Source: a plasmid. Taken from it: a stretch of DNA of 41,714 bases. Position numbers and translations under genes: made by a program. The DNA is taken from NCBI RefSeq assembly GCF_055900595.2, contig NZ_JBVWEU010000004.1, one strand, 5' to 3'. Position 1 is the stretch's first letter. Every line of letters begins with the position of its first letter. Of the stretch, positions 2,935-38,719 are shown in pieces. The notes under the pieces were generated by a model. It did not search any database. It was not told the origin of the DNA and saw only the letters and a program-made list of their open reading frames with translations.

Positions 2935-3908
2935 TGTCGAATGAGAAAAGAAAAACCATCGGCAGACAGTTAAATACCCAGGCGTCAATTGCGGAAATGA
3001 CGGACACCGGTAGAAGCCAGGTATTTACCTTAAAAACCGGCAGGAAGGTAACGTTCAGGTTTGTTCGGGTGCCTGCATCTGAAGTTGAAAGTAAGACCTT
3101 CGTAAACCAGGAAAACAACGGAAGAGATCAACTTGCACTGACCAGGGAATCCCTGAAATCCATTATCCAGACGATTAAGTTTCAGCAGTTCTTTCCCTGT
3201 ATTGGTATTAAGCAAAGTGAAAGGATTGAGATACTGGATGGTTCAAGACGGCGAGCCTCAGCAATTTTTGTCCGTACAGGCCTTGATGTAATGGTTACCG
3301 AAGAGCATTTATCAGCTGATGAAGCTCGCCAACTGGCTAAAGATATCCAGACAGCTAAAGAACATAATCTTCGGGAGATTGGCCTGAGATTGATCGCTCT
3401 TAAAGAGTCCGGATTTAATCAAAAGGAAATTGCTGAACTGGAGGGGTTATCTCAAGCTAAAGTTACCAGGGCGCTGCAGGCGGCGGCCGTACCGCAAGAC
3501 TTGATTTCTCTGTTCCCGGTTCAGTCGGAGCTATCGTTTAGTGACTATAAACTTCTTTTAGAAGTTAATGAAAAACTCAGTGAAAAGGGATTAACGCCTG
3601 AAGAACTCATTCAGTCTGTATCAGCTCAGCTCGATGCAATTTTGAGTGAAGGCGAGCGACCAGAAGACGAACAGAAAGCCAGTATACTGAAGCTGATTTC
3701 TCAGGCATCTCAGGCATTGATAGATCCATCTCCCAAGGAAAAGTCAGTGGTTTCCCCACTCTGGTCTTTTGAAGAAAAGGACAAGTTCGCGCGTAAGCGT
3801 GTGAAAGGGCGTACGCTGACTTATGAGTTTAGCCGTATGTCAAAAGTGATTCAGGATGAACTGGACAAGGCTATCAACGAGGTCCTTGACAGAAATTTGA
3901 GTCAATAA
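2934..3908 (+). CDS. parB: Partition centromere-binding protein ParB/SopB family, about 324 aa
   Basis: ParB-box motif ILDGSRRRAS, HTH region QKEIAELEGLSQAKVTRAL. ATG 2934 overlaps the parA stop (GTG 2931 is an alternative start). Confidence 0.9.
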   Translation: MSNEKRKTIGRQLNTQASIAEMTDTGRSQVFTLKTGRKVTFRFVRVPASEVESKTFVNQENNGRDQLALTRESLKSIIQTIKFQQFFPCIGIKQSERIEILDGSRRRASAIFVRTGLDVMVTEEHLSADEARQLAKDIQTAKEHNLREIGLRLIALKESGFNQKEIAELEGLSQAKVTRALQAAAVPQDLISLFPVQSELSFSDYKLLLEVNEKLSEKGLTPEELIQSVSAQLDAILSEGERPEDEQKASILKLISQASQALIDPSPKEKSVVSPLWSFEEKDKFARKRVKGRTLTYEFSRMSKVIQDELDKAINEVLDRNLSQ

Positions 3909-9641: not shown

Positions 9642-10698
9642 GGCTTTGTTGAATAAATCGAACTTTTGCTGAGTTGAAGGATCAGATCACGCATCTTCCC
9701 GACAACGCAGACCATTCCGTGGCAAAGCAAAAGTTCAAAATAACCAACTGGCCCACCTACAATAAAGCCCTCATCAACCGTGGCTCCATAACTTTCTGGC
9801 TGGATGATGAAGCTATTCAGGCCTGGTATGAGTCGGCAACGCCTTCATCACGGGGAAGACCTCAGCGCTATTCTGATCTCGCCATCACCACCGTTCTGGT
9901 CATTAAACGCGTGTTCAGGTTGACCCTGCGGGCTGCACAGGGTTTTATTGATTCCATTTTTACACTGATGAATGTTCCGTTGCGCTGCCCGGATTACACC
10001 AGTGTCAGCAAGCGCGCAAAGTCGGTTAATGTCAGTTTCAAAACGTTCACCCGGGGTGAAATCGCGCATCTGGTGATTGATTCCACCGGGCTGAAGGTCT
10101 TTGGTGAAGGCGAATGGAAAGTCAAAAAGCATGGCCAGGAACGCCGTCGTATATGGCGAAAGTTGCATCTGGCAGTTGACAGCAACACACATGAAATCAT
10201 CTGTGCAAACCTGTCGCTGAACAATGTGACGGACTCAGAAGCCTTCCCGGGTCTTATCCGGCAGACTCACAGAAAAATCAGGGCAGCATCGGCAGACGGC
10301 GCTTACGACACCCAACTCTGTCACGATGAACTGCGGCGTAAGAAAATCAGCGCGCTTATCCCGCCCCGAAAAGGCGCGGGTTACTGGCCCGGTGAATATG
10401 CAGACCGTAACCGTGCTGTTGCGAATCAGCGGCTGACCGGGAGTAATGCGCGGTGGAAATGGACAACAGATTACAACCGTCGCTCGATAGCGGAAACGGC
10501 GATGTACCGGGTAAAACAGCTGTTCGGAGGTTCACTGACACTGCGTGACTACGATGGTCAGGTTGCAGAGGCTATGGCCCTGGTACGAGCGCTGAACAAA
10601 ATGACGAAAGCAGGTATGCCTGAAAGCGTGCGTATTGCCTGAAAACACAACCCGCTACGGGGGAGACTTACCCGAAATCTGATTTATTCAACAAAGCC
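9642..10698 (+). mobile_element. IS903-like insertion sequence (IS5 family), 1057 bp, complete
   Basis: 18-bp terminal inverted repeats GGCTTTGTTGAATAAATC / GATTTATTCAACAAAGCC. The sequence matches the recalled IS903 left end. Confidence 0.9.
9674..10642 (+). CDS. IS903 DDE transposase (ORF track 322 aa; GTG at 9719 would give the expected 307 aa)
   Basis: Single long ORF filling the IS. IS5-family transposase sequence. Confidence 0.88.
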   Translation: MKDQITHLPDNADHSVAKQKFKITNWPTYNKALINRGSITFWLDDEAIQAWYESATPSSRGRPQRYSDLAITTVLVIKRVFRLTLRAAQGFIDSIFTLMNVPLRCPDYTSVSKRAKSVNVSFKTFTRGEIAHLVIDSTGLKVFGEGEWKVKKHGQERRRIWRKLHLAVDSNTHEIICANLSLNNVTDSEAFPGLIRQTHRKIRAASADGAYDTQLCHDELRRKKISALIPPRKGAGYWPGEYADRNRAVANQRLTGSNARWKWTTDYNRRSIAETAMYRVKQLFGGSLTLRDYDGQVAEAMALVRALNKMTKAGMPESVRIA

Positions 10699-11716: not shown

Positions 11717-11981
11717 GGCTTTGTTGAATAAATCGAACTTTTGCTGAGTTGAAGGATCAGATCACGCATCTTCCCGACAACGCAGACCGTTCCGTGGCAA
11801 AGCAAAAGTTCAAAATAACCAACTGGCCCACCTACAATAAAGCCCTCATCAACCGTGGCTCCATAACTTTCTGGCTGGATGATGAAGCTATTCAGGCCTG
11901 GTATGAGTCAGCAACACCTTCTTCACGAGGCAGACCTCAGCGCTATTCTGACCTTGCCATCACGACTGTGCTGGTCATTAA
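11717..11981 (+). mobile_element. IS903 left-end fragment (265 bp), truncated by the Tn1721 IR
   Basis: Near-identical to 9642-9906. Homology ends at CATTAA|GGGGAGCCC. Confidence 0.9.
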
Positions 11982-33804: not shown

Positions 33805-34064
33805 TCAGTCCACTTGCGGTTTCATTGTTACTTTGTCATAGCGTCGTGTCAGAATGCGGCAGAGAACAGCGTTTACTATCAACGCAACACCAGACCAGAA
33901 AAACCATGTATTAACACCTATAACCTCAACAACCGGACCTGCAACAAGTAAGCCTATCGGCATAGAAAGAGTCATGGCGGTCATCAAAAGGGAAAACACC
34001 TTGCCCATCATTTCAGGGGCAATGCTTTCTTGAACATAAGCCATAACAGGAACATTCATAAATG
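33805..34064 (-). pseudogene. mef(B): 3-prime fragment of an MFS macrolide-efflux gene (mef(B)-like), truncated by IS26
   Basis: C-terminal TM helices ...VMAYVQESIAPEMMGKVFSLLMTAMTLSMPIGLLVAGPVVE. The first track codons derive from the IS26 IR. Confidence 0.65.
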
Positions 34065-34884
34065 GGCACTGTTGCAAAGTTAGCGATGAGGCAGCCTTTT
34101 GTCTTATTCAAAGGCCTTACATTTCAAAAACTCTGCTTACCAGGCGCATTTCGCCCAGGGGATCACCATAATAAAATGCTGAGGCCTGGCCTTTGCGTAG
34201 TGCACGCATCACCTCAATACCTTTGATGGTGGCGTAAGCCGTCTTCATGGATTTAAATCCCAGCGTGGCGCCGATTATCCGTTTCAGTTTGCCATGATCG
34301 CATTCAATCACGTTGTTCCGGTACTTAATCTGTCGGTGTTCAACGTCAGACGGGCACCGGCCTTCGCGTTTGAGCAGAGCAAGCGCGCGACCATAGGCGG
34401 GCGCTTTATCCGTGTTGATGAATCGCGGGATCTGCCACTTCTTCACGTTGTTGAGGATTTTACCCAGAAACCGGTATGCAGCTTTGCTGTTACGACGGGA
34501 GGAGAGATAAAAATCGACAGTGCGGCCCCGGCTGTCGACGGCCCGGTACAGATACGCCCAGCGGCCATTGACCTTCACGTAGGTTTCATCCATGTGCCAC
34601 GGGCAAAGATCGGAAGGGTTACGCCAGTACCAGCGCAGCCGTTTTTCCATTTCAGGCGCATAACGCTGAACCCAGCGGTAAATCGTGGAGTGATCGACAT
34701 TCACTCCGCGTTCAGCCAGCATCTCCTGCAGCTCACGGTAACTGATGCCGTATTTGCAGTACCAGCGTACGGCCCACAGAATGATGTCACGCTGAAAATG
34801 CCGGCCTTTGAATGGGTTCATGTGCAGCTCCATCAGCAAAAGGGGATGATAAGTTTATCACCACCGACTATTTGCAACAGTGCC
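34065..34884 (-). mobile_element. IS26 (820 bp)
   Basis: 14-bp IRs GGCACTGTTGCAAA at both ends. The sequence matches recalled IS26. Confidence 0.96.
34117..34821 (-). CDS. tnp26: IS26 transposase Tnp26, 234 aa from ATG 34821
   Basis: MNPFKGRHFQRDIILWAVRWYCKYGISYRELQEMLAERGVNVDHSTIYRWVQRYAPEMEK... Confidence 0.95.
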   Translation of the reverse strand: MNPFKGRHFQRDIILWAVRWYCKYGISYRELQEMLAERGVNVDHSTIYRWVQRYAPEMEKRLRWYWRNPSDLCPWHMDETYVKVNGRWAYLYRAVDSRGRTVDFYLSSRRNSKAAYRFLGKILNNVKKWQIPRFINTDKAPAYGRALALLKREGRCPSDVEHRQIKYRNNVIECDHGKLKRIIGATLGFKSMKTAYATIKGIEVMRALRKGQASAFYYGDPLGEMRLVSRVFEM

Positions 34885-35916
34885 ATAACGACTGCGTTTG
34901 CGAATGATCCTGTGCCCCAGAAAGATAAAGCCGTCATTAACATGGGTGATTTTAGTCTTATCCATGTTCAGCCTGAGTTTCAGACTGCCTTCGAGCACAC
35001 CCCGACACTCCTCCCTGATGGCTTCCGCCTGTGCTTTGGTGCCTTTGACGATGGGGACAAAATCATCGGCATAGCGGCAGTACGCCACCGCGGGTTTCCA
35101 CTGCCAGTTTTCTCTGACCGCCGTACTTCGGCCCCGTTGGATACTGTTATTCCAGTACCACCGATCTTTTCTGGCTTTCCCGCTCAGGTAGCGCTCATGC
35201 AGGTATTGATCGAACTCATTCAGCATGATGTTCGATAATAGCGGCGATATAACACCGCCCTGTGGCACACCTTCACTGGCCGCCCGAAAGAGACCGACAT
35301 CGATATGTCCCGCCTTGATGGTTTTCCACAGCAGAGTCATGAAACGTGCGTCACTGATCCTGCGGCGTACAGCCTTCATCAGCAGTCGATGATGTACGGT
35401 GTCGAAGTAACTGGACAGGTCGCCTTCAATCACCCAGCGTCCCCGGGTTTCACCGCAGTCTGTGAGCTGTAATTTCACCGTGCGGATCGCGTGGTGGACA
35501 CTGCGCTCAGGCCGGAAGCCATATGAGAGCGTATGAAAATCACTCTCCCATATCGGCTCCATCGCCATCAGCATGGCCCGCTGAACAATACGATCCCGCA
35601 ACGCGGGGATACCCAGTGGTCGCAGTTTGCCGTTGCTTTTAGGGATGTAAACCCGTCTGGCGGGCAAGGGCTGGTAGTGGCCTGAGAGTAATTCATCCCT
35701 GAGGATTTGCAGCTCAACAGCCAGTCTGGCCTGTAGCATTGTTTTGTTCACGCCATCAACGCCGGGGGTATGCGCCCCCTTTGATGAAAGCGTGATCCGC
35801 GCCGCTTCAGCCAGCCATTCTGGTTGTGTTATCAGACGCAGCAGCCGTTGAATCCGTAGGGACGGATCGGTGGCTGCCCATGTGGCAAGCTTGCGTTGCA
35901 TTTCGCTGATTATCAA
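34885..35916 (-). pseudogene. Group II intron RT/maturase, C-terminally truncated (about 344 aa retained)
   Basis: RT motifs RRVYIPKSNGKLRPLGIPALRDRIVQ, FRPERSVHHAI and YADDFV. The track ORF tail VANSRW is IS26 sequence. Confidence 0.85.
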
Positions 35917-36572
35917 AGGTCTTCACCTCGTTAGGTCAGTTAATTCACGTCGCAAACACATTCAAACTGCTTCCCTTCGCCATGTAATGGGCTTTCCCCA
36001 TCGCGGACTACTACGGAAGCTCCGCCAGCCAGCGCGTCATCGGAGCCATGCCCCCTTAACATCCGTCGCTGACCTTCCCCGGTTTACCTGCCTGGACTCA
36101 GGCATACTGAGGAGGCTGCCCGTCGCACTCTTTATCCTTGCTTGCCGCAAGTTGGCAGAAGTCAGCAACGCAAGCGTGATAGACGCTGCTGCCCCGGTGT
36201 TTCGCATACATGTCAAAACACCTTCGACCGGCAGTGCTTACGTATCACTGCCAGTTCCTCCTGCACGGCCTGTCAGATCACGTAGGCCGTGGTGACGTTT
36301 TCAACCCACAGAGGCGGATTAACGGGTTCATGTTCTTCAGCCTTTCAGTACTTAACCTTGAGGATCATCTCGGCTTAGTGATCTCGCCTCAATCCCCGTT
36401 GTCAGCGGGTTACATCACCCTGCGGGCATGCCGCAGGTCACTGCCGCTCAGGTTCTCCACCGTCACACCCGGTGGGATTGTTGGGTTTCTCATCGTGAGT
36501 TACCGGTTCAATATTCCAGACAGACTCGCGGTTCATTTAAGCATCCATGCCCGCCCTGAACTCCGGGCACAC
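34885..36572 (-). mobile_element. Second, unrelated group II intron: the 5-prime 1688 nt only, with the 3-prime end removed by IS26
   Basis: The minus strand begins GTGTGCCCGGAGTTCAGG (GUGYG) at 36572. About 656 nt of structured leader precede the IEP. Confidence 0.8.
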
Positions 36573-36927
36573 TGTAGGTGATGTCGGTGACCCACACCTG
36601 ATTGGGCTTCACTACAGTAAATTCACGCCGCACGTGATTAGGCGCTATCAGTGACGGTCGTCCCCGGCTCCCGCGTGGCACTTTATAACCATGTATAGCC
36701 TGAATCCTGTTTTTCCTCATGATTTTGGCAACCCGGTTTCTGCTGCACACTTCGCCAATTTCGCGAAGATCGCCATGAACCCTGCGATAACCGTAAACTC
36801 CACCACTCAGCGTATAGGAGTCGCGGATGAGTTCCAGCAGTCGCTGGTTATCCTTTTCTCCGGCAGATACAGGGTTATGGAGCCAGACATAAAATCCGGC
36901 ACGGGCAACCTTAAGGACCCGACACAT
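36573..36927 (-). pseudogene. IS3-family OrfB (DDE transposase) N-terminal part, ending at ...NQVWVTDITY where the intron begins
   Basis: GGVYGYRRVHGDLREIG...RVAKIMRKN...VWVTDITY. The track tail SVPGVQGGHG... is intron sequence. Confidence 0.8.
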
Positions 36928-36974
36928 TGTAACGATCGACCAGATTTCACGGTGATCGTTGATAAAGCGATACT

Positions 36975-37259
36975 TCAGTCGGGCTCCCTTGCAAAGTACC
37001 GCGCTGCCTTTTTCAGAATATCCCGCTCTTCCTCAGTGCGTTTAAGCTGTGCTTTCAGCCTGAGAATTTCTGTTCTGGCATCCAGTAAATCCTGTGCCTG
37101 CTGTCCACTGTTGTCAGGCTTAACAGCCCGGAGCCATTTATATAGGCTGTGCGCCGACACGCCGAGCCGTTCAGATACTTCAGCAATAGAATAGCCCCGC
37201 TCGGTGATCTGGCGGACGGCCTCTTCCTTAAATTCAGGGGTAAAACGTGATGTGCCCAT
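36975..37259 (-). CDS. IS3-family OrfA (HTH plus leucine zipper), 94 aa
   Basis: FTPEFKEEAVRQITERGYSIAEVSERLGVSAHSLYKWL ... RDILKKAARYFA. Confidence 0.85.
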   Translation of the reverse strand: MGTSRFTPEFKEEAVRQITERGYSIAEVSERLGVSAHSLYKWLRAVKPDNSGQQAQDLLDARTEILRLKAQLKRTEEERDILKKAARYFAREPD

Positions 37260-37277
37260 AGACTCCTCCTATGCTCA

Positions 37278-37357
37278 AACTATAGGGCAGATTTGTCTAC
37301 GGGCTCGGGGTCACTCCAACTATAGGGCAGATTTGTCTACGGGCTCGGGGTCACTCC
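37278..37357. repeat. Exact tandem duplication (2 x 40 bp) of AACTATAGGGCAGATTTGTCTACGGGCTCGGGGTCACTCC, which is the terminal sequence of the IS3-family element
   Basis: 37278-37317 and 37318-37357 are identical. Confidence 0.9.
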
Positions 37358-37358
37358 A

Positions 37359-37399
37359 TTAAGTGATAACAGGTGTCTGGAAATATAGGGGCAAATCCA
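37359..37399 (+). mobile_element. 41-bp IS2-like right-end fragment
   Basis: TTAAGTGATAACAGGTGTCTGGAAATATAGGGGCAAATCCA differs at one position from the recalled IS2 IRR. Confidence 0.7.
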
Positions 37400-37461
37400 G
37401 TCGGGAGGATGCGTGATCTGATCCTTCAACTCAGCAAAAGTTCGATTTATTCAACAAAGCC
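37400..37461 (-). mobile_element. 62-bp IS903 left-end fragment (inverted relative to 9642 and 11717)
   Basis: The reverse complement equals IS903 nt 1-62 with one mismatch. Confidence 0.88.
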
Positions 37462-37502
37462 CATTCATGTCTGTCGTCTCCGTCACGGAAATTATTACGG
37501 GA

Positions 37503-37919
37503 TTATTTCACCCAGTCTTCCAGCACCAGGCCCGGGACCCGCGCAAACTCTCTCACATTGTTCGTCACCAGGATGGCGCCCGCCGCGATGGCGTGCCCGG
37601 CAATGGCCGTGTCATTCGGGCCGATCGGCGTCCCGGCTAGGCGCAGCGCCACCCGGATGTCCGTCGTGGCGTCCACCGCGGCGCGGTCCCAGGGCAGGAC
37701 GGCATCGAGGCGCGCGCAGAACGCGTCGACCAGCTGAATATGGCGCGGCGAGGCCTTCGGGCCGGTGGCGCCGAAGCGCATCTCGGCATATGTCACGGCC
37801 GAGACCACGATGCGATCACCGCGCAGCACCGCCTGCTCCAGGCGCTTCAGCACCGCTGCCGGCTGCTCGCGCATGATGAACGAGCAGATGTTAGTATCGA
37901 GCATCCAGGTTTTCTTCAT
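37503..37919 (-). CDS. vagD: PIN-domain toxin VapC/VagD, 138 aa
   Basis: MLDTNICSF... PIN acidic residues. 4-nt overlap with the upstream antitoxin gene. Confidence 0.9.
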   Translation of the reverse strand: MKKTWMLDTNICSFIMREQPAAVLKRLEQAVLRGDRIVVSAVTYAEMRFGATGPKASPRHIQLVDAFCARLDAVLPWDRAAVDATTDIRVALRLAGTPIGPNDTAIAGHAIAAGAILVTNNVREFARVPGLVLEDWVK

Positions 37920-38146
37920 GGCTCAAAACGTCCTTCATCGCTGACCACATCCTCACGCTCCGCCATAAAGTCCGGATCGGCCCTGTCCAGCTGCGCGAAC
38001 GAGCCCCAGGTCGGCCGGACGGGACGCAGAATGATGCTGTCCCCTTCCCGGACGATCTCCAGCTCGCTGACGCCGTCAAAATCCAGGTCCCGGGGCAGAC
38101 GGATGGCGCGGTTATTGCCGTTTTTAAATATCGAAACTGTGCGCAT
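37916..38146 (-). CDS. vagC: AbrB/SpoVT-fold antitoxin VapB/VagC, 76 aa
   Basis: MRTVSIFKNGNNRAIRLPRDLDFDGVSELEIVREGDSIILRP. Confidence 0.9.
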   Translation of the reverse strand: MRTVSIFKNGNNRAIRLPRDLDFDGVSELEIVREGDSIILRPVRPTWGSFAQLDRADPDFMAEREDVVSDEGRFEP

Positions 38147-38197
38147 GGTTTTTCCTCATATGCTGAGTGTGCCAGGGAGTATTCCCGCATAGGTGAA

Positions 38198-38305
38198 GTA
38201 TATGCCTGCAAGCCCGGCTTGTATAGGTGTTACATATGCAGATGGTAGGTATATGCGTATGCTTTGCCTATGCAGATGCCCGGCATATGGATATGTTACA
38301 CCTAT
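38198..38305. promoter_or_regulatory. Repeat-dense region upstream of vagC: inverted repeat ATAGGTGTTACATAT (38223-38237) / ATATGTTACACCTAT (38291-38305), direct TATGCAGATG x2 (38235, 38269), GTATATGC x2 (38198, 38249)
   Basis: Repeats read directly. A role as a VagC operator is an inference. Confidence 0.4.
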
Positions 38306-38719
38306 GTTGGTTTCTCACTTTTCCCGCTCAGATCCGAAAAAAGGCAGTTCCGGATCTGATTCAGCCCCGCCGGCGCGCAGCGGCCCGGAAACACAAGATG
38401 TAGCGGTGTTTCCAGCTGTCAGTGACCATATATGTTGTGTCCCTCCCCTGCCCCGTGACCGGCCGCTCACCACCCTGAAAGGGCGCTGTGGTTATTCCGT
38501 GTGCGTGGTACACTTCCGGAAACTGTGGAATAACATAAAAGTCGGATCCGGCCAGAGCGGCCGTCAGGTAATTTAATTACGTTGTTATATGGCTGCTTAT
38601 TATTTTAGTATGTGAAAATCACTCTAGTGAAAGTCACTGTCACGACAGAGTGGCACTCATCTGACGATGATTGAGGTGTGGTAAAATTGCACGGCTAACT
38701 ATTCAACTGAGGAAAGGAC

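Follow-up and report, generated by a model that had tools for sequence, protein, structure and literature searches.

A layered pile of mobile-element remnants beside vapC/vapB and a possible inner-edge target preference in the ISEc15 clade

How does a plasmid come to carry a row of mobile-element fragments that each end exactly where the next begins, and do the positions of these junctions carry any meaning? The question is raised by a 2577-bp segment (positions 34885–37461) of a plasmid contig of 41,714 nucleotides (NZ_JBVWEU010000004.1, assembly GCF_055900595.2), the whole of which is called the window here. A first-pass annotation, made from the sequence alone, had described the segment as a four-level nest: a group II intron in an insertion sequence (IS) of the IS3 family, inserted in an IS2 end, this in IS903, and the pile finally cut by IS26. 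We inspected the region 33900–38400 directly, listed its open reading frames (ORFs), searched for profile domains and compared the layers with their relatives. The region is probably a non-functional pile of mobile-element remnants in which joining at the inner edge of terminal repeats was followed by later rearrangement, and it represents a variant of “locus A”, described earlier from beside vagCD. More tentatively, the IS3-family element in the pile, ISEc15, may belong to a clade that seeks out such inner edges.

The layered structure is real, and chance is excluded by its recurrence, since the full 2577-bp segment was found again in at least 298 plasmids with 92–100% identity. Read on the minus strand, an IS903-group end of 62 bp is followed by the 41-bp right repeat (IRR) of IS2, then by TGGAGTGACCCCGAGCCCGTAGACAAATCTGCCCTATAGT, the same 40 bp again, and orfA (Table 1). 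Element identities and junction coordinates were confirmed, each named boundary being a true element terminus, and so was the view that the mobile elements sit inside one another. The IS2 assignment held against the K-12 copy, where the match is to the IRR and clearly not to the left repeat (IRL). The outermost remnant agrees with the left terminus of a complete element of the IS903 group (IS5 family) elsewhere in the window (9642–10698, with 18-bp inverted repeats; compared over 9642–9703), which upholds the name IS903 at group level, IS102 and IS903B being undistinguished. A further IS903-type left end begins at 11717, 1 kb downstream of the complete element and in the same orientation; the 62-bp remnant is one base off both. 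Between its tip and the vapC/vapB pair lie 41 bp of plasmid backbone.

Table 1. Features of the layered locus and its flanks (window coordinates).
Feature	Coordinates	Strand	Evidence
IS26, complete, 820 bp	34065..34884	minus	14-bp inverted repeats; Tnp26 ORF 34117-34839; DDE_Tnp_IS240
Group II intron, 5´ fragment, 1688 of 2270 bp (E.c.I4-type)	34885..36572	minus	5´ GTGTG; RVT_1
Intron reverse transcriptase ORF, 339/502 codons kept	34885..35901	minus	RVT_1
Intron non-coding 5´ RNA part, upstream of the reverse transcriptase ORF	35902..36572	minus	
Equivalent of the K-12 EyeA small RNA	36109..36183	minus	Coordinates transferred from the K-12 locus (L094)
ISEc15 (IS3 family), 5´ 746 bp	36573..37318	minus	HTH_Tnp_1, HTH_21, RefSeq annotation
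ISEc15 IRL, inner copy	37279..37318	minus	Repeat search, alignment
ISEc15 IRL, solo second (outer) copy, exact 40 bp, head-to-tail	37319..37358	minus	Repeat search, alignment
IS2 terminal 41 bp, whole IRR, outer tip at 37399	37359..37399	minus	40/41 bases vs K-12 IS2A
IS903-group terminal 62 bp (dIS102 in the literature), tip at 37461	37400..37461	minus	61/62 bases; 18-bp inverted repeat
vapC/vapB (vagD/vagC) toxin-antitoxin pair, backbone flank	37503..38146	minus	PIN and MazE_antitoxin domains, annotation

The IS3-family element is annotated by RefSeq as “IS3-like element ISEc15 family transposase”. As the first-pass annotation had it, orfA is intact (36975–37259, 94 codons, HTH_Tnp_1) and orfB is broken at 36573, leaving an N-terminus with HTH_21. 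Complete relatives measure 1230 bp, carry TGGAGTGACC/TGGACTGACC at both ends and encode an OrfB with VWVTDITYI...DQGSQY; in L089, L008 and many other complete copies the left tip reads TGGAGTGACC and the right tip GGTCACTCCA. These hallmarks of the IS3 family are present: a helix-turn-helix in orfA, HTH_21 plus DDE in orfB in the -1 frame, a length of ~1.2–1.5 kb and 5´-TG...CA-3´ repeats. What had been taken for one element between 36573 and 37358 is not a single element. A repeat search, together with an alignment with three relatives, resolved its outer part into the 40-bp ISEc15 IRL and a second, identical copy in tandem with it, so that the count of four levels missed a layer, the solo outer IRL. 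Most relatives have a single IRL and a segment of 2537 bp, and single and tandem forms have the same outer flank. A search for the tandem-IRL junction returned 93 plasmids of the PLSDB database and five Escherichia coli records, and five tandem-IRL plasmids that were compared lie in three different flank contexts.

The position of the neighbouring junction is equally suggestive. The functional IRR of IS2 is 41 bp long and is made up of a cleavage domain of 11 bp and a protein-binding domain on the inside (PMC3299598); because it measures exactly 41 bp, ISEc15 in the window sits at the inner boundary of the functional IS2 repeat. Eight K. pneumoniae plasmids were matched by an artificial query that joined the IS2 interior to the ISEc15 right repeat, as expected of the reciprocal junction. 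At locus L092, the distance between ISEc15 and the right tip of IS2 is 42 bp; ISEc15 has the same orientation, is flanked by a GTTA duplication and is followed on its far side by the remainder of IS2. Compared with the 41 bp of the window, this locus differs in one junction base, one single-nucleotide polymorphism (SNP) and the location of the IS2 copy, and the two insertions are probably independent events. In a Scandinavium locus (L025), an IS2-like right repeat of ~46 bp is followed by an IRL, the IRL-bearing element, TAA and the rest of the IS2-like element; TAA also stands ahead of the stack, and the IS2-like left repeat follows 1.18 kb further on. By its sequence, this locus reads as a clean analogue of the window with the target remainder still present. 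Left repeats of IS911 type, 39–40 bp long, are stacked against ISEc15-type ends in a Citrobacter plasmid (L003) and at L088/L093. Taken together, the IS2|ISEc15 junction looks targeted rather than incidental.

Relatives had been proposed as a place to look for target duplications, and the outcome was mixed. Besides the 4-bp GTTA at L092, 3-bp duplications enclose an intact ISEc15 and its outer IRL at L089 (CAC) and the element plus outer IRL at L025 (TAA), and GTA was seen at L050; most of the other surveyed copies had none. An IS2-type 5-bp duplication has no second side to be read from, the IS2 left end being missing and the predicted reciprocal junction not being in PLSDB.

To see how general the arrangement is, we surveyed 80 loci with an ISEc15-like OrfA (68–99% identity), with each species, from Enterobacterales as far as Pseudomonas, Marinobacter and Burkholderiales, represented by a single genome, and examined the DNA outside the element tips; removal of redundant flanks left 64 loci. 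A second IRL of the element's own, head-to-tail as in the window, was present in 12 of the 64 (a partial one among them, the match being 36–40 of 40 bases). At L003, L025, L061, L063/L080 and L083 the outer copy is not identical to the inner one, which argues for an origin from different element copies and against slippage. Among the other 52 loci, 18 have the core of an IS3-type repeat in register ([AG]GA[CT]A, 11–24 nt before the tip), against 114 of 3208 control windows further upstream (Fisher p = 3.6e-13), and the flanks that bear the core often start TGAA/TGGA...CCCC. Overall, a repeat is stacked at the same register in 30 of the 64 loci. The element's own IRL (37–41 bp) is also stacked outside the right repeat, in 5 of 39 loci. 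The stacking pattern is statistically strong; its mechanism is unproven. A third repeat type, TGAATCGCCAC[A/G]GATAATCTAGACACTTCCGAGCCGTTGA, was found outside the stacked IRL in triple stacks of Erwinia and Huaxiibacter contigs and also beside a Symbiopectobacterium copy (right flank of L013/L031, left flank of L011).

One reading of these observations, to which we give a probability of roughly 0.45, is that the ISEc15 clade has a target specificity by which an end of the element, preferentially the IRL, joins the inner boundary of IS3-family terminal repeats. The targets would be its own repeats and those of IS2 and IS911 type, with the boundary ~37–46 bp from the tip; the outcome would be head-to-tail stacks of complete solo repeats, elements with a tandem IRL apparently still being mobile. 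The arrangement IS2(41)|IRL(40)|ISEc15 in the window would be one footprint of such joining. Its two junctions, IS2-IRR|ISEc15 and ISEc15-IRL|ISEc15, are probably no product of random nesting. IS3-family elements move by copy-out/paste-in via a circle with abutted ends (PMC2909936). In the ISEc15 clade, the integration complex could be drawn to a resident IS3-type repeat and attack at its inner boundary, possibly through contact with transposase or OrfA bound to the protein-binding domain of the repeat. Where the IRL of a resident copy is hit in direct orientation, two direct copies would arise, from which recombination could leave a tandem IRL; where IS2 is hit, its 41-bp repeat would be left behind. 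The intron has retrohomed into orfB of ISEc15, and IS26 has taken its 3´ part. A second step is required where target remainder and duplications are missing; it could be an intramolecular event, deletion-forming and starting from a junction or a dimer, a deletion anchored at an IS end, or movement of a composite with the outer repeat as its end. The IS2 junction itself could alternatively be the product of an intramolecular, deletion-forming ISEc15 event.

Several observations weigh against inner-edge joining as a sufficient account. Beside the heterologous stacks, a search with ISEc15 and IS2 proteins (tblastn) for the remainder of the target element was negative for most loci and positive only in L009, L023, L025, L026, L055, L059 and L082, and most heterologous stacks in the surveyed loci lack a target duplication. 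With remainder and duplications missing, simple insertion alone is insufficient, and the general absence of duplications means that formation in place cannot be separated from movement of a composite. Because the survey covers loci with ISEc15-like OrfA only, specificity to the clade is unproven. With only 1 bp and one SNP between the junctions of L092 and the window, their independence is likely rather than certain. Neither the predicted reciprocal IS102::IS2 junction nor a trlF site into which ISEc15 had simply been inserted was found in PLSDB; the latter would have given a date for the far flank. Finally, the names E.c.I4 and ISEc15 are taken from annotation and literature only.

The same records bear on whether the pile preserves a history, as the first-pass annotation had it. 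The lineage contains neither the second half of IS2 nor that of the IS903-group element. In relatives with a complete ISEc15, the right end adjoins 78 bp of the brxL/trlF intergenic region (BREX locus), not IS2, and the continuation of that region was not detected at the opposite side of the stack. Because of these missing halves, the brxL/trlF flank and the lack of a reciprocal junction, at least one end-anchored deletion or rearrangement is needed. Successive insertion or truncation fits in that every junction is a true element tip; the view of the pile as a clean nest in which the course of events can be read is not supported. Most of the surveyed ISEc15-clade copies (L009–L087) are without a 3–4-bp duplication, even those without a stacked repeat, and this scarcity suggests that end-anchored rearrangement is frequent in the clade.

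Inner-edge joining has several rivals. Plain successive nesting at random, with IS903 entering the backbone, followed by IS2, the IS3-family element, the intron and IS26, would leave the junction positions without meaning. Nested elements are common in resistance plasmids, every junction is at a genuine tip, and the locus is presented simply as a series of successive truncations in its published description (PMC9412624). Random nesting nevertheless has to cope with an inner edge of IS2-type right repeats that was hit at 41, 42 and 46 bp in separate contexts, with a repeat stacked at one register in nearly half of the relatives, with the extra solo IRL and with absent reciprocal halves and a brxL/trlF far flank, and we regard it as unlikely. 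Replication slippage, in which the transposase plays no part, could also be the source of the tandem IRL, the unit being short, the two copies identical in the window, the microhomology CTC[A/C]A present ahead of both, and the outer flank shared by the two forms, which implies gain or loss in place. Against it, the repeat has one of its borders precisely at the IS tip, at least 12 diverged relatives from other species show the same terminal duplication of 40 bp, and in several of these the copies differ and point to different element sources. Slippage thus appears very improbable.

The stacks might also arise if ISEc15, once at an inner edge, adopted the outer repeat as its own end, so that the composite moved as a unit. 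This would account for stacks without a target remainder and for the occurrence of the same tandem IRL in at least three flank contexts, and it fits the stacked heterologous repeats, which are closer to the element's own repeat than chance gives. The 3-bp duplications around element plus outer IRL at L089 and L025 agree with it too, but formation in place would have kept them equally. The heterologous composites examined have no flanking duplication, and in the lineage of the window the far flank of ISEc15 is brxL/trlF, not IS102, so that the stack in the window was not inserted in IS102 as a unit. We regard such capture as rather unlikely. The option raised in the first-pass annotation, that the 41 bp form the genuine end of a new IS3-family element whose repeat resembles that of IS2, draws on TGGA...CCCC...AGAC, which is common to the IS2 IRR and the ISEc15 IRL. 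It is refuted by the complete copies and the collapsed 1230-bp contigs, both ends of which read TGGAGTGACC or TGGACTGACC; the piece is lacking in ISEc15 relatives from other contexts and is IS2 at all but one base. Its probability is negligible, and the IS2 piece is rejected as ISEc15's own end.

orfB itself is interrupted by the intron. On the minus strand, GTGTGCCCGGAG starts at 36572, the GUGUG 5´ end from which a group II intron had been called, and an RVT_1 ORF on the same strand (E = 1e-33) extends from 34885 up to 35901/35916. The check for uninterrupted intermediates succeeded at this level: three ISEc15 copies free of the intron (L005, L089, L093) show the empty site ACCTACA|TCCGCACC and read GTCACCGACATCACCTACA|TCCGCACCTGGCAGGGC across the insertion point, which places the junction between 36572 and 36573. 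One of these (L093) and a filled copy (L088) represent the same plasmid locus. The insertion point follows directly on the conserved TDITY codons (TDITY|I) in the catalytic region of the transposase. These comparisons support a true site-specific insertion in orfB, and the GUGYG start, the precise insertion and the identifiable empty sites are those of a group II intron. A full-length relative on the K. pneumoniae plasmid p607-1 (L001) is 2270 bp long with the 3´ end CUCUAC, matches the domain V/VI model RF00029 of Rfam with 64.9 bits (threshold 40) and encodes a 502-amino-acid LtrA protein with 341 bits on TIGR04416 (cut-off 300) and with RVT_1 and GIIM domains; the domain search detected no endonuclease domain in this protein. 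The window region gave no Rfam match at E ≤ 0.1, because the part with domains V and VI was taken by IS26. With these catalytic domains, the 3´ splice site and the C-terminus of the maturase lost, the copy in the window is a dead fragment of a true group II intron.

The same intron, at 99.4% identity or more, occurs in 2615 of 5426 complete E. coli genomes, in up to 20 copies per genome. It is at least 99.5% identical over 1688 bp to the intron remnant at ykfC/eyeA of K-12, which has the identical 5´ end, sits in the homologous codon of IS911A and was severed by IS5A; IS911A is additionally split by IS30A (CP4-6 prophage). In K-12 the intron starts at position 3192 of locus L094 and eyeA spans 3581–3655. 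The annotated small RNA EyeA thus sits inside the 5´ part of the intron, and the window holds the equivalent stretch, at which Rfam gave nothing. E.c.I4 is reported to home into IS3-like transposase genes such as those of IS629, IS911, ISEc16 and ISEc31 (PMC3522654). By its behaviour, homing into IS3-like transposase genes including that of IS911, the intron matches the E.c.I4 type.

In the full-length relative (L001, 5000–5420), the 5´ exon is ISEc15, and the 3´ exon is orfB of another IS3-family element, reading WTREGWVYLAVILD rather than RTWQGWLYLAVVID when compared with L002, L003 and L088. Such mixed exons suggest recombination between intron copies in different host elements. IS110-family elements (ISKpn60-like and IS4321/IS5075-like) also recur in or beside ISEc15 (L005, 3460–4775; L002, 3886–5200; L088, 4876–5880). 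Those of L005 and L002 occupy the same orfB position in two ISEc15 variants, a coincidence that hints at another site-specific hitchhiker.

At its left end, the intron is severed by IS26 at 34884/34885, as had been described, and its last 582 bp and everything beyond are gone. The IS26 copy has its full 820 bp, perfect 14-bp repeats at 34065–34078 and 34871–34884 and a minus-strand Tnp26 transposase with the DDE_Tnp_IS240 domain, and it is annotated as IS26 in the identical stretch of NZ_CP010149.1. An 8-bp target duplication is absent, the flanks reading CATAAATG and ATAACGAC. IS26 adjoins a truncated major facilitator (MFS, mef(B)-like) ORF (33805–34064) downstream of a short-chain dehydrogenase (SDR) gene, and in NZ_CP010149.1, whose sequence is identical here, the SDR and mef(B)-like genes have sul3 upstream of them; the border of mef(B)-like ORF and IS26 resembles the way in which a sul3-type integron region usually ends. 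That record, plasmid A of E. coli D6, is 100% identical over the 2577-bp region. Before ~18.9 kb the window is arranged otherwise and is a mosaic relative to it, so that colinearity throughout was rejected. By this comparison, the window appears to derive from a plasmid or assembly related to NZ_CP010149.1 but rearranged.

Parts of this arrangement have been met before. At “locus A” of IncR plasmids, beside vagCD, a dIS102 (IS903 group) is truncated by IS2 and this by ISEc15, which was left whole in one plasmid; ISKpn60 interrupts it in 41 plasmids and Tn5393 in six (PMC9412624). The three outer layers, the vagD/vapC flank and the junctions are the same in the window, and L005 and L090 represent the ISKpn60-type form. 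In the window, however, ISEc15 is interrupted by a group II intron instead of ISKpn60 or Tn5393, the intron is severed by IS26, and the IRL is duplicated; as far as the accessible part of that account goes, neither IRL duplication nor targeting is mentioned (PMC9412624). The K-12 CP4-6 locus shares the intron, the homologous orfB codon and a 3´ side truncated by an IS of another kind, but there the host is IS911 and the truncating element IS5, and no stacked terminal repeats were noted. With E.c.I4 the intron has in common a conserved site in IS3-family transposase genes and many copies per genome, on plasmids and chromosomes; ISEc15 is missing from the published host list (PMC3522654), and the exons of the L001 copy come from different IS3-family elements. 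Thus the outer three layers are already published, and the intron layer has a near-identical precedent in K-12. The new lead is the comparative inner-edge repeat pattern of the ISEc15 clade.

Insertion directed by the terminal repeat of another element is itself familiar from IS911, IS30, IS21 and IS4321/IS5075, the last of which uses the repeats of the Tn21 family. IS911, IS30 and IS21 insert beside the outer tip of repeat-like targets, with tip-to-tip junctions in the case of IS911 and IS30. The ISEc15 clade would resemble them in using another element's terminal repeat as target, with a transposase that probably recognises repeat-like target sequence. With this geometry of IS911 and IS30 as reference, it would differ in the point of joining, which here is the inner boundary, 37–46 bp in, with a complete solo repeat head-to-tail. 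The searchable literature contained no account of repeat stacking in IS3-family elements, a weak negative, as most subscription journals lie outside it.

In conclusion, the stack is best seen as a scar that repeated traffic of mobile elements has left in a multiresistance plasmid, without a function of its own and mainly useful as a lineage marker for IncR/IncF plasmids. If inner-edge homing is true, tandem or foreign 40-bp repeats should be read by annotators with caution, as footprints and not as new element ends. It would also explain why such remnants accumulate at the same plasmid sites, and it would offer a testable handle on target choice in the IS3 family, e.g. by tethering to transposase or OrfA at a resident repeat.

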